From assembly GCA_048213135.1 (NCBI GenBank), contig PS015134.1, positions 1 to 64,000 of the forward strand: a stretch of 64,000 nt of DNA, given 5' to 3'. Shown piece after piece: positions 19,501-48,702 of the stretch. The notes below the pieces were generated by a model, which was not told where the DNA came from, did not search any database, and worked only from the letters and a program-made list of their open reading frames with translations. The first letter of the stretch is position 1, and every line of letters starts with the position of its first letter. This DNA comes from Reclinomonas americana ATCC 50394 (lineage: Eukaryota). The translations under genes were made by a program, and so were the position numbers.

Positions 19501-20955
19501 ACCGCCGCCGCCTCCAGCGTGCGTGGCGCCGAGGGCGGCGGCTACCTGTCGCTGGGATACGCGCCAAACTCGGGCAGTGACACACTCGACTTTGCCACTG
19601 ACGATTGGTGCGTCGGCAACCTCGCCAAGTCGCTGGTACGTGCATGAGCTCTTTCGACATCTGCGTCCCTGCATCTCATTGTGTACACAGGGACAAGATG
19701 AGATTGCGCAGGCGTTCTTCAACACGTCGCGCAACTGGGAGAACGAGTGGAGCGACAAGGTCAAGTTCCTCTGCAGCAGGAACCCGCAGGGTGCGTGGTG
19801 ATCGTTGTCGTCTTTTTTGTGCAGTGCGCGTCCTCAATACTCGCGCAGGCAAGTTCAACGAGTGCGACGAGCCGTCTCTGGTGTGGGAGTCCATGGCGCT
19901 TGACGTCTTTGACGCTTGTTGCGTCGATTTTGTTGACAGAGGAGAGAGGGGAAGCAGTGTCTCATTTGGATTCACAGACTACACGGAAGGCGATGCGTGG
20001 CACTATCGTTTCTCTGGTGCGTTGCATGCCCTCCCTTTGCTGTCACCTTCACCTCGCGCTCACTTCCATCGCAGTCCCCCAGGATATCCCCTCGCTGATC
20101 GCCAAGTACGGCGGCGCCGAGGTGTTCTACAACACGCTTCTCACCTTCATGGTTCGCGTGCTGTCGTCGCTCGTGCCTCTTGCGTTAAACTCACGTGCAC
20201 GCGCGCCCGCAACAGAGCAAGTCAAAGGAGGTCCTCAGCAACTTCTTGCCGGTGAGTATTTGCTTTTCTCCAGATGTTTAAGGCGTCAACTCACACCCGT
20301 CTTTCCGCAGAACCCTTACTACTGGGCCGGCAACGAGCCCGACATTCACGCTCCGTTCCTGTTCAACTACGTCGGGTGCGAATGTGCAAGTGTGTCGCTT
20401 GTTGGTGATGCTGCGCTCTCACATTGCTGTGCACAGTCGCCCCGACCAGACGCAGCAATACGCTCGCTGGCTGGCCGACAATCACTACACGGCCGAGCCG
20501 CCGGGCATCTCCGGCAACGATGATTATGGGTTTGTGTGCGAGAAGAGTGTCTTTCGCCTGAAGAAGCAAGAATTCCTATCCTTTACACACGCTCCGCACT
20601 CTTCTTGATATCCCCCTGTCCTAATCCCTCACCCTTCGCCCTTCGCCCCCTTTCCCCCTCCCCCAGCACCATGAGCGCCTGGCTGGTCCTCTCCGGCGGC
20701 ATGGCCATCTACCCGGAACCGTGCTCGGGAAAATTCATGATCTCGTCACCTCTCTTCCGCTCCGTCGAAGTCACCCGCGCCGGCGACTCGGCACCCTTCC
20801 TCCGCCTCCTCGCCCCGAACAACTCGCACGCCACCAACGGCCTCGTCAAGTCGGTGACGATGAATGGCGGTGCACCGCTCAACGTCGACTCGTACTTTAT
20901 CGATCCGTCGTGCTGGGCCGGCGGCAAGACGTGCACGCTCACGTTTGACATGTAA
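16035..20955 (+). CDS. Secreted glycoside hydrolase family 92 alpha-mannosidase, about 20 exons including microexons
   Basis: Signal peptide MPRAWLLLLLLACL. Spliced motifs VNTAIGTGG..PPGAQVPFGFARISPDT, GFSHIHMVGAG..DLGNLGVMP, SPGYY, HRYTWP, VGLSLISVDQARTNL, KFYTAVYH, YTDLSIWDIYRS, GHLPKW, YTEGDAWHYRFSVPQD, YWAGNEPDIHAPFLF, GISGNDDYGTMSAW. Stop TAA at 20953-20955. Confidence 0.93.
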
Positions 20956-36261: not shown

Positions 36262-37556
36262 TCATTCACGATTGGTATTCAGTCGACGAGTGAGTAACGC
36301 AATGATCGCTGCACGCGAAAAAGACCCTGTGTGAGTCACGAAAGACGGAAGAAGAAGAAGAGGAATCGCCGCGGCGTACCTTTGGCCGATCGCTCATCAA
36401 TGGCCTCCAGCAGATGTGCCACCTCGCTGCTGCTGATGCTGCCGCCACCTCCTCCGCCGCCGCCGACTCCTCCTCCGCTGCCGCCTCCACCGCCGCCAGT
36501 GGGACTGGAGAGTGTGTTGCCTGGAGTCAGTGATGAACCGGTGATGGTGCCAGGGAGCCCGGCTGTCGACGGGTCGAGAAGAGCGCCGGCAGAGCTAAGT
36601 GAGCCGACACCAGCAGCGGGAGCTTGCGACTGACTGGCGCCGTCGAGCACGAGGGCGCGCTGCTGGGGGAAGAACGACACGTCTTGCTTGGCCACCTGCG
36701 TCGAGAATTTGGTGAGAATGAAACCGTGGACACAACATTGAAGGAGAACAGCTTGCGAACCAACTCGGCCACATACTGCTCCGTGCCGGTGTAATCGGTG
36801 GGGTCCGTGTGTTGCAAGTACGTCTGGGTGGCAGCAGCAGCAAGAGGTGAGCGACAGAAGCATCAGAAACAAGTACTCTTGGTGCATGAACACAGACCAA
36901 GAAAAATACATATTGCCACATGTTGTGATCGTTGTGAATGTGATCCTCGAAACCTACCACAAGAAACCAGTCAGCGATGGCTGCAAACTCCTCCCACCCT
37001 TCCCCATCCCGCACGAACCGTTGCCAAGTCTCTCAAACACGGATCGAGGCAAGTTGCAAATGAAGCAGCGGGTATCGCGGTCCTCATTGACTGCGTCCTT
37101 TTGGGCACGCAGTTCACCAAACGTGTCGAGAATGATACCTGTGTTGCAACACAGTGAGTGCGCCGGAGTCAACATGTTATCTTACATCGCAAGCCACGCA
37201 CCGAAGATGAGATTCAACGTGACGATCGTAATGATGACTGCACACAGAGAACATTGCAGCGTGAGCTCCAGCAACGACTCGCCATCTAGCATTCTGGACA
37301 TGCGTACGTACAGACTGCGCAGTGCACACAAATATGGGATGAGTGTAACGCGACGCGGCAACAAATGAGCAGCAGAACGACGCACAGAAGAACAGACTGA
37401 AGATGCCAAATCCAACAATGTCGTCGGGTTTGAACAGTTGCTGTGGAACGACAATGCAGCGTGAGCTTGCGATTGGGAATTCAAGGTATATAGAGTTGTT
37501 TGCTCACCTCAAAAAACGACGCGCCACGCAAACTGCACGAAACAACACCGGTAAGG

Positions 37557-37599
<43 letters not shown>

Positions 37600-40500
37600 C
37601 ACCACTGATTTGCCTCGATACGCACCCATAGTTGGCGTAGCTGAAGAAGCACTTGATAAAGGACTCGCACAGGTAGGTCGGACCATCGGGATCGTCCGCA
37701 TTGAGGACGAACACATTGTTGTAGAACAGGAACGTGAAAATCTGCATTGGAGGCAAGTCGAGTGAGGAATGGAGCAAAATTGCCTCCATAGGTAGATGGG
37801 ACTCACCGAAAAGTCGTAAATCAAAAATGTTCCTGCAAGGGAGAGCAGAGAAGCACTGTGAGATCAGGCATGCACAGACGATCGAGCAGCAGTGCACACG
37901 AACCAAGCACTGCAAATCGCACGCGGGCAAAAGGAAAGGAGAGGCAAGGCGTATGAGTTAGTCTGACAACTGGGTACAACGACGGCAGACACACACCAAA
38001 CTGCGCGAAATAAAAGTAAGTAAACTGATGTAATACATGAATTGCCATTGCATAGCCATCGCAACTGTGAGGAACAGCGACCAGAGGTTGCGGGTGACGG
38101 ACCGAATGACGTTCTTCAGCACCTCGAAGCGCGTAATTAATTCAAACAGGTGGAATCTGCACAAACATCGTGAGCAGCGCAGAGCACACAACAGCGATAG
38201 AGCTGGAATGAAAAAAAACGCAACGCATAGAAAAAGTATGACACGGAGAGGCCGAGGATGCTGAATACAACATAGGCCAACTGCAGCGACCAACAAGATG
38301 AGACTCACGGAGTGATTTCATCAGACAAGAGTGAAAACCACGAAACGTGATACAAGAATTCCCCGTCGCGGATGAGAAGCCAGAAGAACTTGCACCAGAA
38401 CACGAATCCACGGCGAATGCTGGAGAACGCTTCCTGCGCGATTGCAAGCACTTGATAAGCAAACGCACACACATGCACCCACATACACACACACATACGC
38501 ACACACACATATACACACACGCACACACTCGCGACAAGACATGACAAGACACGACAGACACAGCACGCAACATCAATCTTTAATGATGGCTGCCATCGGT
38601 TGACCACAGAGACGACGCCGACACCTTGCCAGTACGTGTAAACTGCAAAAAGCAAGCAGGATGAGAAAGTGTTGTGCAAGAGGACAAGTGCGCTTATCAC
38701 GCAACGTAATATCACAGCTAATATGAGTTGCATGATGCCGAGCACCACCATAATCACCGACGTCGAATCGTCACGGAAATCCACAGTGCTGCACGAATTG
38801 CAAGTCGTGAGAACACGCACACGTGCAAAATCTCATCACATATCTACTCGCGTCTTTTCTCCTCTTCTTTCCCCTCTCCCCTTTCCCCTCCCTTCCCCTC
38901 CTCCCCACTTCCGCACGCAACATGGAATCCGCGTCCGGTCGATCCTTTACCACCAGCGTCAACAGCAGAATCAAGTTCATGGCCACGGCCAACCAGAAAC
39001 TGAGCTGCTTGAAGTACCAGTTGAAGCGGTTCAGCGCGTTGAAGAAGCGCTTCCGTTGCAGCTTCTGCCGGTGATTCATGATGCGCATCATGCGGGGGTA
39101 CTCGCTGAGGAGGCCCTCGATCTTGTTGGTCGACGTGTCGCGGTTCACCGTGGCATTGAAGAGGTCCTTGGTGGCCTCCGGCAGCAAGAACGCCGACTCT
39201 GGAATGGGGAAGTAGACGCGTTCCAGGTTGCGGTCACGGACGATCTCCACGCGCCCCGTGAAACGCCTGAACAGCTTCAACTTGGCCATGTCGGCACGCG
39301 TGTCGCTCGCAAACTTGGGGTCCACATCGATGAGCTGCCGCGCGAGCGAGTAGTACTCCATGCCGTACAAGAACTTGGCGTTGTGTGCACTCTGTGACTC
39401 GGGATCGGCAGGATCGGGAGGCTCCTCGATCTTGCCGAGAGTGTAGCGGCGCTGAGGTGTGGAAGGAGGACGCAGAATGAGTGAAAAGGGGGATAAACAA
39501 GCAACAACTCCGTGAAAAGCGTGAGACGCAACGAAAGTGTCGGAGCTGCGAGCCAGAGCATGCAGCGGCGCGTGGATCTCCACCACATGTGGAAGCTACA
39601 CACGGGGTAGAAGATGAGAATAAGAGGCCCAACATGGTATGTACGCGCAGCACTCGACTCCAAACGCAACAATGATATTGCCGCCAATGGCCTCGCGTAA
39701 TACACGCGGAATGTCGGGCAGGTTGCCGCCCTCGGTCATGCTGGCAACGACGACAAGTGCACTCCGCTGTCAATCGAGCGCAATGAGCACAATGCCCCTC
39801 GCATTTCCTCACGTCGGCAGCCACACAAACCAGCAGATTGTACTTGTCGACGTCGTCGCAGTCGTCGTAGGTCTTTTCGAGAATCTTGTTCACAATGAAG
39901 CTCAGCTTGGTCGACGCCAGAGCCACCTGTGCAAACAGAATGAGTCTCTCTCTGTGTGTGTAAGCGCGCGCGTGTGTGTGTGTGTCTCTCTCTCTCACTC
40001 TCACTCTCTCTCTCACTCTCTCTCTCTCTCTCTCACTCTCTCTGTCTGTCTCCCTCTCTCACTCTCTTTCTTTCTTTCTCTCCTACTCTCTCTGACTCTC
40101 TGTCCCTCCCCTTACTGACACAAGAGTGACAAACCTGATTGGGGATGCACGGGCCCTGAATGACTTCGGCCAGCGTGTTGAGGACCTGAATCGCCACCTC
40201 GATATTCGACGCATCAATGTACCGCTCAATGCTGCTCAGATACTGCAGTACCTCGAACACCAAGTTGATCGTTTCAGCGTGATTGCTCTGCACGCGGAGA
40301 TAGTTCTGCAGGCTGTGCGAGAGACAAAGCGTCACTCACGGCACGCTTGTGGTAAGAGGGCGGGGTAAGCGCACGCAACTTGAGGTAGTGGCCCTCGCAG
40401 AAGAGCTGCAAGAAGCGCATCACTTCGCGCACAAAGCCTGTCGCCTGGAAGTCTTCACTTGCAGCCTCCAGCAGGTACTGGGCATCTCTGTAGCGCAGCA

Positions 40501-43500
40501 CGTGAGTCACCAGAGTAACAATCACGTGATCTTGCTCACACACGCAACTCTTCATCGCCATCGTCACCCGCCTCCATCTCCTGCTTGTGGAACTCCAGAC
40601 GTCGATGCAAGGCGCGCTGCTCCTTGATCTCAGCAGTGGCGCGACGAATGCGGTCGCGAACGGAGGTGAAGAACTTTTCGTCGGCAGAGCTCACAAGGTG
40701 CTTGTAGATGGCCTCTTGCACATGGCGGTTGCCTCCGTCCAGCAGCGCAATGCCAAAATCAAGAGCCGCCTTGACAATCGCATCCATGGGCGAAGTGATG
40801 AGCTGTAGGACGAGTACTGCCGCACCAAAGTCACACAGCTTGTTCTGGATTGTGGTTTGCGGAACCGGCACCTCATTGGCCGTTGTGTCCGCCGACCACT
40901 CCAACAAGTGTGTGAGGATGCGCAGGCAGGTGACAAACAAGTCGGTCTCCTGTGCGTGCACGCGTTGATCCGAGCTGCGCACATTTGTTAGCGACAGAAA
41001 ATTTGAGATCTTCCCCCGCACACAAACTGACCTCAACAAGAAAATCAGCTTCTTCGCCTCCAACAAAAAGTCCGGCGACGACGGCTGCACCACTTGTCCG
41101 TGCGAGTCTGTCACAAACACCATGGCCAGGTCGTGGAATTCAGCAGTGGGGTCGCAGCTGGGCAAAGGAACAACACAAGTGAGCCTCCAAGGCATACGAA
41201 CAAGAAAGCTGCGTATCGACGCACCCCTTGGCGATAATCTCAGACAACTGGGTGAACCGGCGCTCCTCGCCCACGTCGGTCAGGTGCACTTGAGTCGTCG
41301 ACGATGCGTCGCTTTGCGATCGCATACCCTCGCCGATTTCAAACGCCTGTCGAATGAGAAACTGTCAAAACGGCGTGCGCTTGCGTGCATGGAGAGATGA
41401 GAGACGCGATCGCAACTCGCTCATTGTGACGCGACGGTGGAAGCGCAGTGCTCGACATGATGGCAGCCATGGCGCTGCTCAGCTCGCGCTGCTCTCGATG
41501 ACCGGTGACGTACGAGTCCAGTGCCACCAGCGCATCGATGAGGCTGAGAGCCACTCGCGGACCGCGTCTGCACGCACCAGTCGTGAACACACATGTGGAA
41601 GACAGGCACTCACGCGCAGCACCCCACGCAACGGATCCGATTTCCAGTCCATTCTGTCGTCCGTGCACAGGGAGGCAACCAACGGCAACATGCGCTTGAA
41701 CAGGTACTTGCGGTAGTGACCCAGAACTCGCTCACGCTCCGTCGCGTCGGTTGGCACCAGAGAGGGATCTGAGTGGCAAAAACTTTAACATGTGCGCTGG
41801 ACAGCCGCGATGGAAGAAAGTCGCTCACCAAAGGGAGGTGCGTCACGCAAGGCAGCCTCGGCGTCGGCGTTACGCGGCTGCAGCGCCATGAAGAATTGCA
41901 CATCGCGGATCAACGACTCGAGCAGCTGGCCCACAGGTCCAGCGCAAGAGAGCAACGCCGATCGTTGCTCGACATTGACGTACACCTCAAAAATGAAGAA
42001 CACCAGTGCACTCTTGACCTCGATAATGCACCCAGGCTCCACTGCCATGTCGATGGCCACATCGAGTGGCAGCAAGCTCTGGCACTTGACTTCGACCTGT
42101 CGCCAGCGGAAATCTGCTCAGAAAGGAAGCACAATCACTCTTACTGGCGACGCGAAAGCACTCACCAAATGTAGCCTGCCCAGCGAGCACATGGCAAGCG
42201 TCTCGAGCAATGAAATGTGGTACGCCAGTGGACTCTCCTCCGCGTGTGTGATGTGATTGCGCGCCGCCATGAGCTGCAACCTGCACGCCCCCATCATGTT
42301 AGCTGACAGGATAGGGAGAGAGACACGCCCCAGTCAGAAAACACACCGTCGTGCGCGCTCTTCCGGCGTGTTGAAGAGGATCATGGTCTCGTGCTCTCGC
42401 TCAGTCAGCATCTTGATAACCAGCTGCTGGTTGCGTCGAATGGGCCGCCCGTCGACCACCAGGATCACGTGGAAAAAGTTGGTGTAGCGCTGGTATCGAC
42501 CGCGTTCGACAATCAGCGTGATAAAATGCCGAATGTACTTTTCCTTGATGCTGCTGCACAGTACGCGATTGTTGCGGTAGATTTCCTCAATGTGTTCGGC
42601 GGCCTTGAGCTTGACACTGTTCAGCGGCAGTGAGCGCGCACAGAAAGCAGGAAAAGAGAAAGGCGAGGCCAATGTCACAAACCCCATTTGTGACAGGTAC
42701 AGTTCCATCTTGATCGCACATCGGCGCTGGTTTGCACGGTTCTTCCGCACAAACTGCGATGGAAGAAGACGCGAGGTGAGTATGAACTCACGGTCCATGT
42801 CTCTCATATTCACGACGCAACGTGCTTCAGCGCCTGGTAAATCGCCAAGAACAGTCCGCGACGCGACAGCTCCGTCGGCAAGTTGGCAAATGGCAGCTCC
42901 AACAACTCGTGCAGAATGTCGTCAAAGCCGAGGTTGCGCAGAATATTCTGCTTCTCTCGTGCTCCACGCTTCTGCTGCAGCTCTGCGCACGACGCGAACT
43001 AAGTATTTCACACACCGGGCACACACTGCAGCGAAAAACTGACTGAGAAAACAAACCCGCAATGACGGCGTTGCAGAGATTCATCATCTCCACTTCATCG
43101 GCGCTGACGACCTGTGAGCCCTTGGACTGGAGGTTGGAGAGGCGATTCACCATCTCGCGCAGGCGACGATACACGGCCACACTCTCGTCTGTCACCAACA
43201 GCAGCGACGAACGGACTTGCGTGGTGAGCTCGGCGTTCGAGCTGCCAGTGAGCCACATGGTTGTCAGCAATGTTTTCACAGCATGCGTGCTGTCGAGTTG
43301 CGCACCTGAACATGCGAAACAAGAGCTTGAAGCATGCCGTGCGCAGTTTCGGGTACTGGTAATTGCACAGGTACAACAGAATGCTGCGCAGCGAGTCCAT
43401 GTTCCCCAACATGTTGCAGTCCTGCATCGGCGGCGATGAGTGAAAACTACCACCACAATCCTCGGCATGTCGACGCACCTCAAAGAAGCGGTTCATGACA

Positions 43501-46500
43501 TCGCGCGTGACGGCCATGTCGGGTGAGCGTCGAAAAGCGACCAGGAACAGTGCCAGACGCTGGTCAAGGCGAATGTCGAGGAAAAAATTGAGCAAACTCA
43601 CGCATTCGATCTTGCACTTGACAATGACCGAGTTGATCTCGCTGGGGTCGAAGCGGCTGTGCGATGATCCACCAGCTTCGGCAGAACGCTGGGTGCCACG
43701 ACCTGGTCGACAACACGAATGTGAGAGGCGAAGGAAAATAACGTCATCAGCACCCCACAGACCTCCTGCGACCAGCTCGTCGGTACGCCCGTCGAGCAAC
43801 GCAATCACGTCGGCGGCGACCTTGGAAATGTTCATCAGCTGCCGCAGCTGACCCCAGTCGGCCAGCATTACGAGAACGCGAAGAACCTGCGGAGTGTGTC
43901 GGTGAGCGAGTGGAGCGCGACCGAGTGTCTCTCCCACCCTCCTCCGTCGCTCACGCAACACTGAGAATTAGTTGATTGTGCGACGCGCGGCCATAAAACT
44001 GTTGCCGATTCGAGCCGACAAACTCGCACGCAAACGCAAGCACAGCCCGAACACGCTCGTCAATGTCGGCCAGTGACGGCACATTGTCCAGTGCCGGCTC
44101 GTAGGCATTCAGGTCGGCCTCACTCGCAGCCTCAATCAGCGGCGACATCTCGCCGTGGAAGAACGAACGCCGGCTGTGCCGCTTGCTGTGTCGCTTGGAG
44201 GTGTGCGCATGGGGGGCAGCGGCGGTCGCCGAAGATGATTCCACGGGGTGCGGGTGAGACAGCGGCATGATATCCACTGTCGTGCCCGACGATGAGGCCG
44301 ATCCAATCGTGCGCACACCATCGTTGACTTGATCGCCTTGTGCGCTCCAGATCTGCAAGGCGGCGAGGGCGAATTCAGTTACTGTGTAGGAGAGAAGTGG
44401 GCAGTGCAGGGGAGAGACAGACCTGAATGTTGTGAATGCGTGGCGCGACGAAAAACGGATCCACGTCCACAAAGAGGTGCTGAATGAGCTGCACGTAGGC
44501 ACTGCGGAGCTTGGCCGGATATTCTGACGAGCGGGCAATCTCCAATGCCATCTCAAAGGGCACCAGTCCACTGATTATCCGGTGGGCGGCAGGGTTGCGT
44601 TGCTGAGGTGGAAGACGTGCGTGAGAGAGAGAGACAATTCGCAAGAGAGCAGCGCCACTCACCATGCACAGGGCGGCAAACAACTCAATCTGCGCCACGA
44701 GATAGTTGAATACCTCGGACGTCTTGTCGCGGCAAAAATTGACCAATTCGGAGTGGCAGCGAGTGCCGTCGTCCTCCATCCATTGAATGAGCGGGTTGGT
44801 CACCGGCGGCTGTGGAAAGCGCGCAGTGAGACTGGTGCGAATGAACACAGCACAACAGCATCAGCAGCGTCGGCGACGCAGACGCAACCGTCACGTGGTA
44901 CAACAAGTGCGGGCACGCCTGCACAAAGTTCTCCAGCACGTATTGCTGATTCGTGGGCACCACCAGCTTGCCGCACTTGACCAGCATGATGAGGAACTCA
45001 ATGTACCTGCCCAGTGGCAAAGGGAGAAGAAAGGGGAAGGGGGAAGAGGGAAAGAGGAGAAGAGGGGGAAGCGCAGATGAGCAAGACAACAGAGCGAGAG
45101 CTGCTTCTCGAAAAACTCACCGACTTGAACGACCCTTACGCGGCAAGTCCACGTAGAAGCGGAGTGTCTCGGATGACATGGAGTCGAGGAGTGCCCGGTT
45201 GTCACGAAACATCTCAATGAGCAGCTGTGACGTCATGAGGTGGTAGCCGTGCTGACTTTGGATGAATGGGATGTGTGGCACCACCGCTGCGCGGCCACGG
45301 TTCGACTCGCGGACAACGTGGTACAACAGGCGGTAGCTGAGGCGCACGACCTGAGCAATGTGCTGGTATTGTGACAGCAGCATGTCATCCAGGGTGTAGC
45401 CGCGGTCAAAGGGGGTGTGAATCGCCCTCATGCAGCGGTCAACCACCTGGAGAAGAAGAGAGGGAGGGAGGGAAATGATTAGCGAGAGAGATATTGCAGA
45501 GCAACGGAGGAGGAAACTCTTGCCACTAATGCGCAACTCGTCGGTCACGTAGGAGCCGCTGGTTACGCTTGATGGGGACACCCTCGCGCTCCATCGGATC
45601 TTGCACGTGCGACTCGGAGCACATGAAGATCAGGCGAGTGAGAGCCTCCAGCACGAACTGCAGCGACAGTGGACTGCACTCGTGCTGCTGGCGATGCGGG
45701 AACTGCATGGTGGCGGTTTCGCGGTGAGGGTGGCGGCTTTCGCTCGTTTCCACTGAACAGAACACACCTGACGAACAAAGTTGTCGAGCTCGGCGAGCAG
45801 CGACGTGGCCTGGTGCAGAGACGACACATCGAGGGTGGACGCCAGCACGACGTAGAATGCGTCTTCGTCGGGTCGCACAGTGGTCAGGGAGAGCAAGTGC
45901 GGCTTCTTCTCGGTTGTATCGTAGCCGATGAGTTGGGAGAATCGCGCCGCTCGAGTGGCCTCGTCGCTGCGTCGTTTGAGAAGGGGCGGGTGAGGTGAGT
46001 ATCGTGAGGGGGAGGAGGACGCACAATGAAACTCAACTCTGCCTCCTGCTCTTGCGCCTGCGAGCAGAGGAAGAAAGTCGATCGCTTGTGTCGCAAGCGC
46101 AGGTACGACTCGACGGGAATGAAGCCCTCGCTCTGCAAATATTGAATCAATAATACGGGAGCAACCATGGAATGACGCCTCGAGATGTCACCGACCTGGA
46201 AGAGCGGAAGGAAAACAAATAGAGTGTCGGGATCGTTGCGGTTGGCCGTCATGGTGACAATCGGACGCGCTGCTGCCAGGCGATGCAGCGGATTTTGACC
46301 TGAAAAATCACACAGCGAGTGAGTGACTGAGGACTGCTCTCTCATCAGCTTACATGTTGACTTCTTCACGACTCAACTGACAGTGGTGCGACGACCGAGT
46401 CGACTGAGCACTGCGCAGGCATCGTAAACACGTACACGGTGAGTCTTGCGCGATCGGAAAGAAGAGAACGTCATCGACATGTGCACGAACATCGCTCACT

Positions 46501-48702
46501 CGCACTGCGAGCTGGAGCGGTGAGGCGGGACAGCGCGGACTGAGCGCGCGAACCGATGCCTGATGATGCTGCAGCTGCCGCTGCCGAGCCCACTGTCACA
46601 GTCGACGCCTCCGACTCGTCCATCATGTCGCTCAATAAATCCTCGTGTGGATCGCTGATCGGTTGCAGAGCGTCGGGATCGGCCTTGAGATACAGGCCAG
46701 TGGCCAAGTGCTTGAGACGGACAGTGGCTTGCCAGGGGGCGAAACCGCCTGCGCAATGTGTGAGAGAGAGCATAGCAGAAAGTGGGGAGGGTGGGCGGTG
46801 GTGGTGACGCACCGCGACTGGCATCGGCCATTTCCACGTCCCACATAAAGTTGACAGACAGCTGGTCACTGCGTTTGCTGAGAGTGGAGGGGCGGATGTT
46901 CACTGCGGCGACGAACAATTAAGAGAGCCGTGATGTGATGGATCAGAGCAAAACAATGCACTGCACCTTCCAGTTGCTCCTGACGATCGTCGGCATTCAA
47001 AAAGCCCTCGAGTTCCTTGTGATACAAGTAAATGACATCACCTGCGACACAGCAAGGTGAATGGAACGAGACCATGAGCAGGAGAGCGCGCAAACACAAC
47101 GTACCAGCTTTGAGGAATCGCTGCGCCTCACTGGGCACATACGAGGCAAACTGATGCAACGCCCAGCGTGCCGTGGTGGTGGAACCCAGAATTTCGATGC
47201 GACCGTCGGGTTCCTCGAACCGCTCCGTACTCGGCGTCACATACAAGCGGAACTTGCGACTCAACAGCTGCACACTGTCGCCGAGACGAACAGCGTCGCC
47301 TTCCGTGCGCAACTTGGTCGACGGCTCCACCACAAAGGCGCAGCCAGAGTCGCCACTCTCGATCGGAACCAGCCGGGCGCACCCGGACTGCGTCTCCGCC
47401 GCGCGACGCGACACCGACACGAAGCGATCAGAGCGTACGTGCAGCAATTGCAGCGAGGAGCCGTAGGTGACCTTGCGACCGAGCGCACGCTGCGTTTCGG
47501 ACTCGTTCTGCCGCACCTCCGAGTCGCGTTTCAACTGCAGATCCTTCAGTCGATTGTACTCCTCCAAATCGTCCTCGTTGGTGGGCGGCGGAGTGCGCGT
47601 ATAATCAAACGACGAGTCGTACGACGACTGCTCCAGCTCGCGGTGAAAGTGCTTGGCCGCCGAGTACAGAATGGGAGGTAGAACGCGGAAGATGCAGTCT
47701 GCGAGGGGAGTGATGAGAAGAGAGAGGAGGGAGGAGAAGGGGAAGGGCGGAAGAATGGGGAACCTCGAAAGTTGGCCGGCAAGTTGCCTTCGTGGCCCTC
47801 GCTGATCGCGACACGAATGTCGACAATTCTGGGAGCGCTCGTGAGTCCACTCCATAAGCATCGAGACGAAATGCAAGTCGACATTGCTTACCCTTGAGTG
47901 CTGATGTAGCCCTCGACCAATTGCGTCTTGATCTCGTGACTGCAGTGCAAGCTGATCAAGTCTGCGATCAAAAAAGGGGGGGAGAGGGAGGAGGATGAGC
48001 AAGGGAAAGTGAGTGTGAGAGGATCCGGAGGGGGAGGAGGAGGAGGAGGAGGAGGAGGAGGAGAAGAAGAAGAAGAAGGAGAAGAACGAGGAGGAAGAGG
48101 AAGAACAAGAGAACGGAGGATGAGGAGGAGAAGAAAGAAGAGAAGAAGAAGGAAGAGAAGGTGGAGGAAGAGGAAGAATGGAAGAACGGAGTCCAGATCA
48201 ACGCATGCACACTCATGATCTCTCTCTCTCTCACACACACACATCACTCACTCATACACGCACACACTCATCACTCACTCACACACACACTCACTCACTC
48301 ACTCATACAGCATTCAGTCATGATCTCTCTGCATCACTCACTCACTCTTTGCCCCTTCCCTCTCTCTCCCTTCTCTCTCTCTCTCCCTACTCTCCCTCTC
48401 CCTCTCTCACACACACTGCACCTCCATAGCTCAAGAACTCCTCCGGCTGCGTGTCCGCGCGCAATGCATCCTCCACTGCGCCTCCACTTGCCACTTGACC
48501 AACGCCCAATGAGGCAAGCACAGTGGAGGCAGGAGCGGAGGAGGAGGAGGCAGGCAATGCACTGCAGAGTGTGTGAGAGAGTGAGACGACATGTCACACT
48601 CTTTCTCTTTGTGTGTGTGTGTGTTGCTTACCCGCGCAACACGGATGGTCGCGGTAGTTGCTCGCTCGTGGCCACGACTGTCGCCTGTGATGGGCGACTC
48701 AT
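36262..48702 (-). CDS. ITPR: Inositol 1,4,5-trisphosphate receptor family Ca2+-release channel, full length, many exons
   Basis: FLSYGDLISL..EGYISTQG, DCIFRVLPPILYSAAKHF, VTYGSSLQLLHVRS, MIR-type VRLKHLATGLYL, RNQRLLRD, LIEMFRDNRALL, RIH region FLQLFCEGHYLKLQNYLRVQ, TLAEVIQGPCIPNQ, GRVEIVRDRNLERVYFPIP, TM region LKNVIRSVTRN, LNLIFGIILDTFGELR, CFICNL..HIHNDHNMWQY..DYTGTEQYV. Confidence 0.96.

Follow-up and report, generated by a model that had tools for sequence, protein, structure and literature searches.

How can one transmembrane helix of a large channel protein be put together from exons of only four and six nucleotides (nt)? This question is raised by a stretch of 64,000 nt from Reclinomonas americana ATCC 50394 (GenBank assembly GCA_048213135.1, contig PS015134.1, positions 1 to 64,000 of the forward strand), which is called the window below. 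Its minus strand carries a gene for a channel of the IP3R/RyR family, and an earlier inspection of the letters, referred to here as the sequence-only reading, had proposed that two ultra-short exons, TTTG and TGCTTG, build a part of a membrane helix of this channel. By our analysis, both are probably true internal coding exons, and both are probably used in the proposed way. The pair would supply 10 nt (F, V, L and the opening base of the G codon) joining ...SLFLT to TFLIYDFS, within the helix named S5 (TM5) in IP3R structures.

The exons and introns around this helix are given below from upstream to downstream on the minus strand, with a slash at each exon-intron border.

38066..38156, minus strand: 91-nt exon encoding the S4-S5 linker and ending SVTRNLWSLFLT (DNA ...CTGTTCCTCACA), donor aca/GTTGCG, placed by the ITPR2 alignment
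38001..38065, minus strand: intron of 65 nt with a CTTAC branch-like motif about 20 nt ahead of the acceptor, a T-rich tract and cgcgcag
37997..38000, minus strand: microexon 1, TTTG, 4 nt, an F codon plus the base that opens the codon after it
37910..37996, minus strand: intron of 87 nt with donor ttg/GTGTGT, CTAAC about 57 nt ahead of the acceptor, a long pyrimidine tract and ttgcag
37904..37909, minus strand: microexon 2, TGCTTG, 6 nt, which finishes V, encodes L and begins the G codon with one base
37833..37903, minus strand: intron of 71 nt with donor ttg/GTTCGT, CTCAC about 29 nt ahead of the acceptor, a pyrimidine tract and ttgcag
37807..37832, minus strand: 26-nt exon, which finishes the G codon and encodes TFLIYDFS in the middle of S5
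37742..37806, minus strand: intron of 65 nt with donor tcg/GTGAGT and a CTCAC branch-like motif
37626..37741, minus strand: 116-nt exon encoding IFTFLF (the end of S5), a loop on the luminal side that contains two Cys, and the beginning of the pore helix (...SYANYG)

On the minus strand, TTTG is found at 38000-37997 in the context ...tttcgcgcag/TTTG/gtgtgtgtctgcc, with gtgtgt on the donor side, and TGCTTG at 37909-37904 in the context ...gcgatttgcag/TGCTTG/gttcgtgtgc. The 26-nt exon (37832-37807) reads cccttgcag/GAACATTTTTGATTTACGACTTTTCG/gtgagt, and the 116-nt exon opens from 37741 as atgcag/ATTTTCACG... The microexon coordinates and flanking hexamers that the sequence-only reading had given were all exact. 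Joining the pieces by their coordinates yields ...SLFLT, FVLG, TFLIYDFS, IFTFLF..., and the joined reading from SLFLT to IFTFLF was thereby reproduced. The IP3R TM5 sequence with which the sequence-only reading had aligned the helix agrees with that of ITPR2 (...SVTRNGRSIILT AVLA LILVYLFS IIGFLF...), and the gapless alignment claimed for this helix holds, with the same spacing in ITPR2 and in all 57 homologs that span it.

Both flanking exons were placed by comparison with known channels. In the search of solved structures, all of the top 12 matches of the 91-nt exon translation were IP3Rs, and its 30 amino acids (aa) aligned end to end with ITPR2 2369-2398 ending SVTRNGRSIILT (E 0.05 for this very short query). 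The 116-nt exon matched positions 418-457 of the homolog profile (E 2.5e-5) and is in frame in the C-terminal model; its 38-aa translation alone gave no IP3R match in the solved-structure search.

The spacing between these two exons was examined in homologs. An exhaustive search of representative proteins returned 211 homologs at E <= 0.001, the best with 48% identity over 80 aa. A query with the large exon of the channel domain found no homolog at E <= 0.001 among proteins of 481-2000 aa. Among the best 150 of the 211, 57 span S5 in one profile match, and the remaining 93 either are fragments or fail to cover it; this rule could drop homologs with large insertions or deletions, not those with small ones. 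Not one of the 57 has a gap or an insertion in the 27 columns around S5. Counted from a conserved T at position 0 of the S5 profile (T in 52 of the 57), L is found at +3 in 42 homologs, G at +4 in 24, Y or F at +9 in 51, F or Y at +11 in 54, and S or A at +12 in 48. The 91-nt exon ends on T, and the Y, F and S of the 26-nt exon reach +9, +11 and +12 only when four residues, or 10 nt, intervene. Because the spacing of S5 is invariant in 57/57 homologs, exactly 10 nt are therefore needed between the 91-nt and the 26-nt exon.

The same amount is required by the gene downstream. The C-terminal part of the gene model was curated via homology and GT-AG rules, and with both microexons it comprises 1806 nt with no stop before the one at 36336, in 16 exons of 488, 217, 87, 56, 91, 4, 6, 26, 116, 25, 55, 36, 120, 56, 63 and 360 nt. 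The 15 introns between them are all GT-AG, with lengths of 175, 138, 66, 68, 65, 87, 71, 65, 93, 67, 148, 63, 65, 74 and 65 nt. Only 10 extra nt between the 91-nt and the 26-nt exon bring the pore helix, S6 ...NLIFGIILDTFGELR and the CFIC...H..H motif into frame. The introns that flank the microexons (65, 87 and 71 nt) compare with a mode of 63-68 nt in the gene, and 9 of the 12 other C-terminal introns measure 63-74 nt. Small neighbours of 25, 26, 36, 55 and 56 nt make tiny exons usual in this part of the gene.

Several splicing chains could restore the frame across the gap. With canonical sites, 11 stop-free chains were found when introns of at least 45 nt were allowed, and 8 when at least 60 nt was asked for. 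When GC donors were admitted beside GT and the flanking exons could be extended, chains of exactly 10 nt numbered five, and two of the five were free of stops. These two were separated by a position-specific score derived from the 57 homologs: TTTG plus TGCTTG (FVLG) obtained +7.7 bits, and the single exon TGCTTGGTTC (CLVR) -7.9 bits. Over all 12 residues, the version with both microexons reached 15.2 bits, inside the range of the homologs' own scores (8.6-32.3, median 25.2), and the CLVR version -0.4. Both microexons thus keep the frame and restore conserved residues. Read-through of the donor at 38065 was rejected, as it meets a stop, and no canonical donor there is both in frame and correctly spaced. 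The 12-mer read in this way from 38030-38065 on the minus strand scores 0.6 bits on the S5 profile, in the top 0.3% of 9774 null 12-mers, versus 15.2 for the spliced form; its score may reflect chance hydrophobicity or a relic.

Chance was estimated by dinucleotide shuffling. When the 233-nt stretch was shuffled, some 10-nt chain arose in 724-1547 of 3000 shuffles, and an AG..GT chain of 10 nt as good as FVLG arose in 2 of 3000 with a minimum intron of 30 nt, in 3 of 3000 with 45 nt, and in none of 3000 with 60 nt. For the full 12 residues (36 nt), an equal score was obtained in 1 of 2000 shuffles of the 324-nt stretch. No 12-mer out of the 9774 stop-free ones in the gene's three minus-strand frames reached 15.2 bits.

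The splice sites were scored by position weight matrices (PWMs) trained on 21 other introns of the gene, 12 from the C-terminal part and 9 from upstream, and ranked against 616 AGs and 825 GTs within the gene as decoys. A stricter training set consisted of the 11 best-anchored introns. The scores of the sites in question were as follows.

Acceptor of TTTG: 10.0 bits, 99.0th percentile; stricter set, 98.1th
Donor of TTTG: 7.0 bits, 99.0th percentile; stricter set, 99.9th
Acceptor of TGCTTG: 1.3 bits, 85.9th percentile; stricter set, 87.4th
Donor of TGCTTG: 7.5 bits, 99.8th percentile; stricter set, 99.9th
Donor of the single 10-nt exon TGCTTGGTTC: 4.0 bits, 79th percentile; stricter set, 86.1th

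For comparison, the training acceptors scored -1.6 to 12.0 when each was left out in turn, a range that includes the acceptor of TGCTTG. A CTNAC branch-like motif is present in all three introns flanking the microexons, and it is unusually far upstream in the middle one of 87 nt. When both strands of the 64-kb window were scanned for AG and GT pairs with a spacing of 1-12 nt and with scores no lower than those of TTTG, two were found, TTTG itself and one inside an ordinary exon; with the stricter matrices, TTTG was the only one. At the weaker thresholds set by TGCTTG, the scan returned 12 pairs in 128 kb, including both microexons. A microexon-like signal of 10 nt at 42175-42166 on the minus strand, with an acceptor-like score of 12.3 bits just ahead of a true donor, was rejected as it belongs to the interior of a normal exon with the conserved ...LAYHISLLETLAMC...; it is an example of a false positive of the signal scan.

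The gene in which the two microexons lie was identified by its domains, by profile matches and by the C-terminal model.

36336..48197, minus strand: IP3R/RyR-family channel gene, approximate extent

It spans about 12 kb, from 36336 to at least 48197. Pfam detected Ins145_P3_rec (PF08709) in the open reading frame (ORF) at 46866-48197 (E 6.9e-21; 74.8 bits, with the cutoff at 23), RIH (PF01365) twice, at 45120-45629 (E 9e-8) and 42337-42921 (E 1e-9), and RIH_assoc (PF08454) at 40036-40335 (E 8.1e-19). MIR was weak in 46474-46899, at 23.8 bits under its cutoff of 25.6. A profile from 27 full-length homologs gave 17 exon-level matches in order from about 47700 down to 40129, and the homolog profile matched ITPR2 with E 3e-155. 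The large exon at 39451-38964 aligned in the solved-structure search with IP3R1 2157-2286, just ahead of the first channel helix (E 7e-8). A six-helix channel domain is present at the C-terminus, with S6 ...NLIFGIILDTFGELR and CFIC...HIHNDH (a CxxC...HxxH motif) in the model. The closest solved structures to the channel gene are IP3Rs, not RyRs, and together with the span of about 12 kb they would be compatible with a protein of IP3R size (~2,300-2,800 aa).

Judged by these matches, the gene is a member of the IP3R/RyR superfamily of calcium-release channels. The canonical selectivity filter G-G-G-[IV]-G-D is absent from the channel, and 37532-37508 encodes G-L-R-G-A-S-F-F-E. Because of this divergent filter, the predicted protein should therefore be called an IP3R/RyR-family channel rather than a proven IP3 receptor. 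Of the label IP3 receptor that the sequence-only reading had used, the family assignment is upheld by Pfam and the structure matches, while the more specific name goes too far in view of the non-canonical filter. The 25-nt pore exon at 37508-37532 on the minus strand has G-L-R-G-A-S-F-F-E at the place of the canonical filter. Among the 57 homologs, 42 have canonical-like filters, 3 (P0004, P0010 and P0076) an aromatic pair followed by E, 6 another sequence, and 6 are without the region. The channel with G-A-S-F-F-E may belong to a subfamily with a different ion selectivity.

Other explanations of the locus have to be weighed against the use of both microexons. An equal length of 10 nt and an unchanged spacing would be obtained with one tiny exon instead of two, namely the 10-nt exon TGCTTGGTTC at 37909-37900 with the donor ttc/GTGTGC; S5 would then read LT, CLVR, TFLIYDFS, and TTTG would be a chance look-alike within a 156-nt intron. 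The downstream intron of this exon would have the modal length with 67 nt, and its donor, at 4.0-4.8 bits, falls inside the range of true donors, but at the 79th-86th percentile this donor is outranked by the GTTCGT 4 nt upstream (99.8th), which would have to be bypassed. CLVR is disfavoured by the profile at -7.9 bits against +7.7 for FVLG, and it places an Arg in the helix at +4, where 24 of the 57 homologs have Gly; neither R at +4 nor C at +1 occurs among the residues listed. The pair of top-1% acceptor and donor around TTTG would also be left unaccounted for, and we find such a single exon scarcely credible. Other choices at the same sites are no easier to believe: TTTG alone, which shortens the helix by two residues, or TTTGGTGTGT plus TGCTTG through a donor 6 nt further in the GT repeat, which lengthens it by two. 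Both forms are in frame and free of stops, and staggered donors do lie within the GTGTGTGT run, but both violate the spacing that is invariant in 57/57 homologs, and with TTTG alone a strong donor would have to be bypassed within an intron of 164 nt.

A further explanation is joint skipping of the 4-, 6- and 26-nt exons (38066 to 37741), be it in the main mRNA or in a regulated isoform, with the loss of 12 residues of S5; the small exons would then be either unused or a cassette. The sequence-only reading had stated that the frame breaks without the 4-nt exon; this is correct as long as the 6-nt and 26-nt exons stay, but joint skipping removes 36 nt and keeps the frame. It is also the model that a gene predictor would most easily produce, and the stretch left over is still hydrophobic. 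Nevertheless, none of the 57 homologs has an insertion or deletion in S5, and the skipped DNA encodes just the missing 12 residues, with the conserved L, G, Y, F and S matched (15.2 bits), for which a chance chain as good was seen once in 2000 shuffles and never among the 9774 null 12-mers. The intron needed would be 324 nt long, against a mode of about 65 nt. We consider joint skipping improbable. Highly improbable, too, is a decaying or misassembled copy, in which the microexons would be an artefact of a forced frame. Such a view could draw on the draft state of the assembly, with 2117 N in the window, on the non-canonical selectivity filter and on the ambiguous junction 38963/38789. Against it, there is no N from 36023 to 57261, the 16 exons are open to the stop with GT-AG introns, S6 ...NLIFGIILDTFGELR and CFIC...H..H are intact downstream as are the domains upstream, and matched AG and GT flanks with pyrimidine tracts are not a product of misassembly.

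Some points weigh against the use of TTTG and TGCTTG as two exons. The proposal is drawn from the genomic sequence, and, since 4+6+26 makes 36 nt, skipping all three small exons also leaves the frame intact. The acceptor of TGCTTG is only moderate (1.3 bits), with its CTAAC unusually distant at about 57 nt upstream, and the 91-nt exon has a mediocre donor (4.5 bits, 83.5th percentile; 0.3 bits, 49th percentile with the stricter set). The introns used for the PWMs were curated by ourselves, and the 9 upstream ones were chosen by eye from lists that hold alternatives, which may have introduced a bias. The profile was built on distant homologs (~25-48% identity), and the protein is divergent elsewhere, for example in the selectivity filter. 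A close relative was found neither in the protein search, where the best hit had 48% identity over 80 aa, nor among the metagenome contigs, where 130 matches to the pattern of related loci contained no relative; the ESM Atlas returned nothing but bacterial look-alikes below the threshold.

If the two microexons are used as proposed, the S5 helix would be encoded across five successive exons (91, 4, 6, 26 and 116 nt) that are separated by GT-AG introns of 65, 87, 71 and 65 nt. Since introns of this gene are about 65 nt long (63-68), splicing by intron definition would be expected; each intron would be recognised singly, and exon length would not be read. The flanking introns would be removed successively, because a 4-nt exon has no room for splicing complexes on its two sides simultaneously, and each removal would enlarge the exon, to 32 nt (6+26) and then to 36 nt. 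The tiny size may be offset by the unusually strong donors after both microexons and by the strong acceptor of TTTG. A bolder version of this scheme, which we regard as unlikely, is that the 36-nt unit (4+6+26) is included or skipped as a block, with ordered splicing as the control point; this would switch between a subunit with the full S5 and one shorter by 12 residues, which would probably be non-conducting or dominant-negative.

Exons of comparable size have been described in plants. In a plant study (Yu et al. 2022, Nat Commun 13:820, PMC8831610), internal coding microexons of <=15 nt are reported to have canonical flanks, to be often not a multiple of three, and to encode parts of conserved motifs. 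They are usually missing from annotations there, and their omission shifts the frame of the model (PMC8831610). Exons of 1 nt were validated in APC11 and VPS55, and adjacent microexons of 5 and 12 nt in a rice transcript were confirmed by reverse transcription-polymerase chain reaction (RT-PCR) (PMC8831610). According to the same study, the flanking introns are removed consecutively, often the downstream one first, and constitutive microexons have stronger splice signals (PMC8831610). The top-1% donors after both microexons of the present gene fit that picture of consecutive removal and strong signals. As in the plant cases reported there, the exons found here are internal, coding and a few nt long, have canonical flanks, encode a piece of a conserved motif and cause a frameshift if missed. 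The sequence-only reading had expected gene predictors to overlook both exons, as happens in plants, and this may apply to the present genome too; the constitutive use that it proposed may likewise be correct. They differ in belonging to a channel gene of a eukaryote that is not plant-like, with introns of about 65 nt. The pair is smaller than the rice pair that the study reports (4+6 instead of 5+12 nt), with a 26-nt exon directly next to it. In the account given there, the plant cases are backed by RNA sequencing and RT-PCR, whereas the present pair was derived by computation on the DNA only.

The predicted protein resembles animal ITPR1-3 in the order Ins145_P3_rec, MIR, RIH, RIH, RIH_assoc and six-helix channel, and ITPR2 in the length of S5 and in its V, L, Y, F, S and I, which occupy corresponding positions. 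It differs from animal IP3Rs in an identity of only ~25-35%, and from ITPR2 in the selectivity filter, which is G-A-S-F-F-E versus G-G-G-V-G-D. Animal IP3R genes are not known to have such microexons in S5.

Some further features of the intron pattern were noted. The channel domain (36336-39451, minus strand) is divided into tiny exons (4, 6, 25, 26, 36, 55, 56, 56 and 63 nt), and the exons upstream (40036-48197, minus strand) are hundreds of nt long. Nearly all introns of the model carry a CTCAC-type motif (CTNAC, branch-like) 17-30 nt ahead of the AG. The donor GTTGCG, which is far from the usual GTRAGT, recurs at 38571, 38224 and 38065, where it is well anchored, and probably also at 45537, 44888, 42821 and 40379 on the minus strand; a literature search for this hexamer returned nothing relevant. 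GTTCGT, the donor of TGCTTG, is also the donor at 37018. The junction 38963/38789 between the S1 and S2 exons is ambiguous: the frame is kept only with the donor ct/GTTGAC at 38963, and the more obvious donor gtg/GTAAAG at 38950 mismatches the phase of the acceptor. The loop at 38789-38963 (minus strand) is not conserved, so the junction is uncertain. An introner-like origin was looked for by all-against-all blastn of 24 introns, and no repeated intron family was found; the sole similarity among them was due to long (TG)n microsatellites in the introns at 38434-38571 and 37533-37625 on the minus strand. Elsewhere in the window, an ORF piece at 19702-20523 on the plus strand matched Glyco_hydro_92 (E 1.4e-7), and another at 1315-2268 on the plus strand narrowly missed the cutoff for a Teneurin-like EGF domain (E 5e-5).

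Ultra-short coding microexons, including a tandem pair, are known already, and the case leaves the general knowledge of microexons unchanged; what this channel gene probably adds is a somewhat more extreme pair of 4+6 nt, followed by 26 nt. If both microexons are true, automatic models of this channel would be wrong, being frameshifted, truncated or short of 12 residues of the pore-lining helix, and such a wrong model could make the organism seem to be without an intact IP3R-type channel. The pair would then be a clean case of tandem ultra-short exons outside plants and animals, with near-minimal introns, and would bear on how intron-defined splicing deals with exons too short for two splicing complexes. 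Even if unregulated, exons of 4, 6 and 26 nt in a row with minimal introns of 65-87 nt would have few rivals as natural tests of exon size under intron definition.

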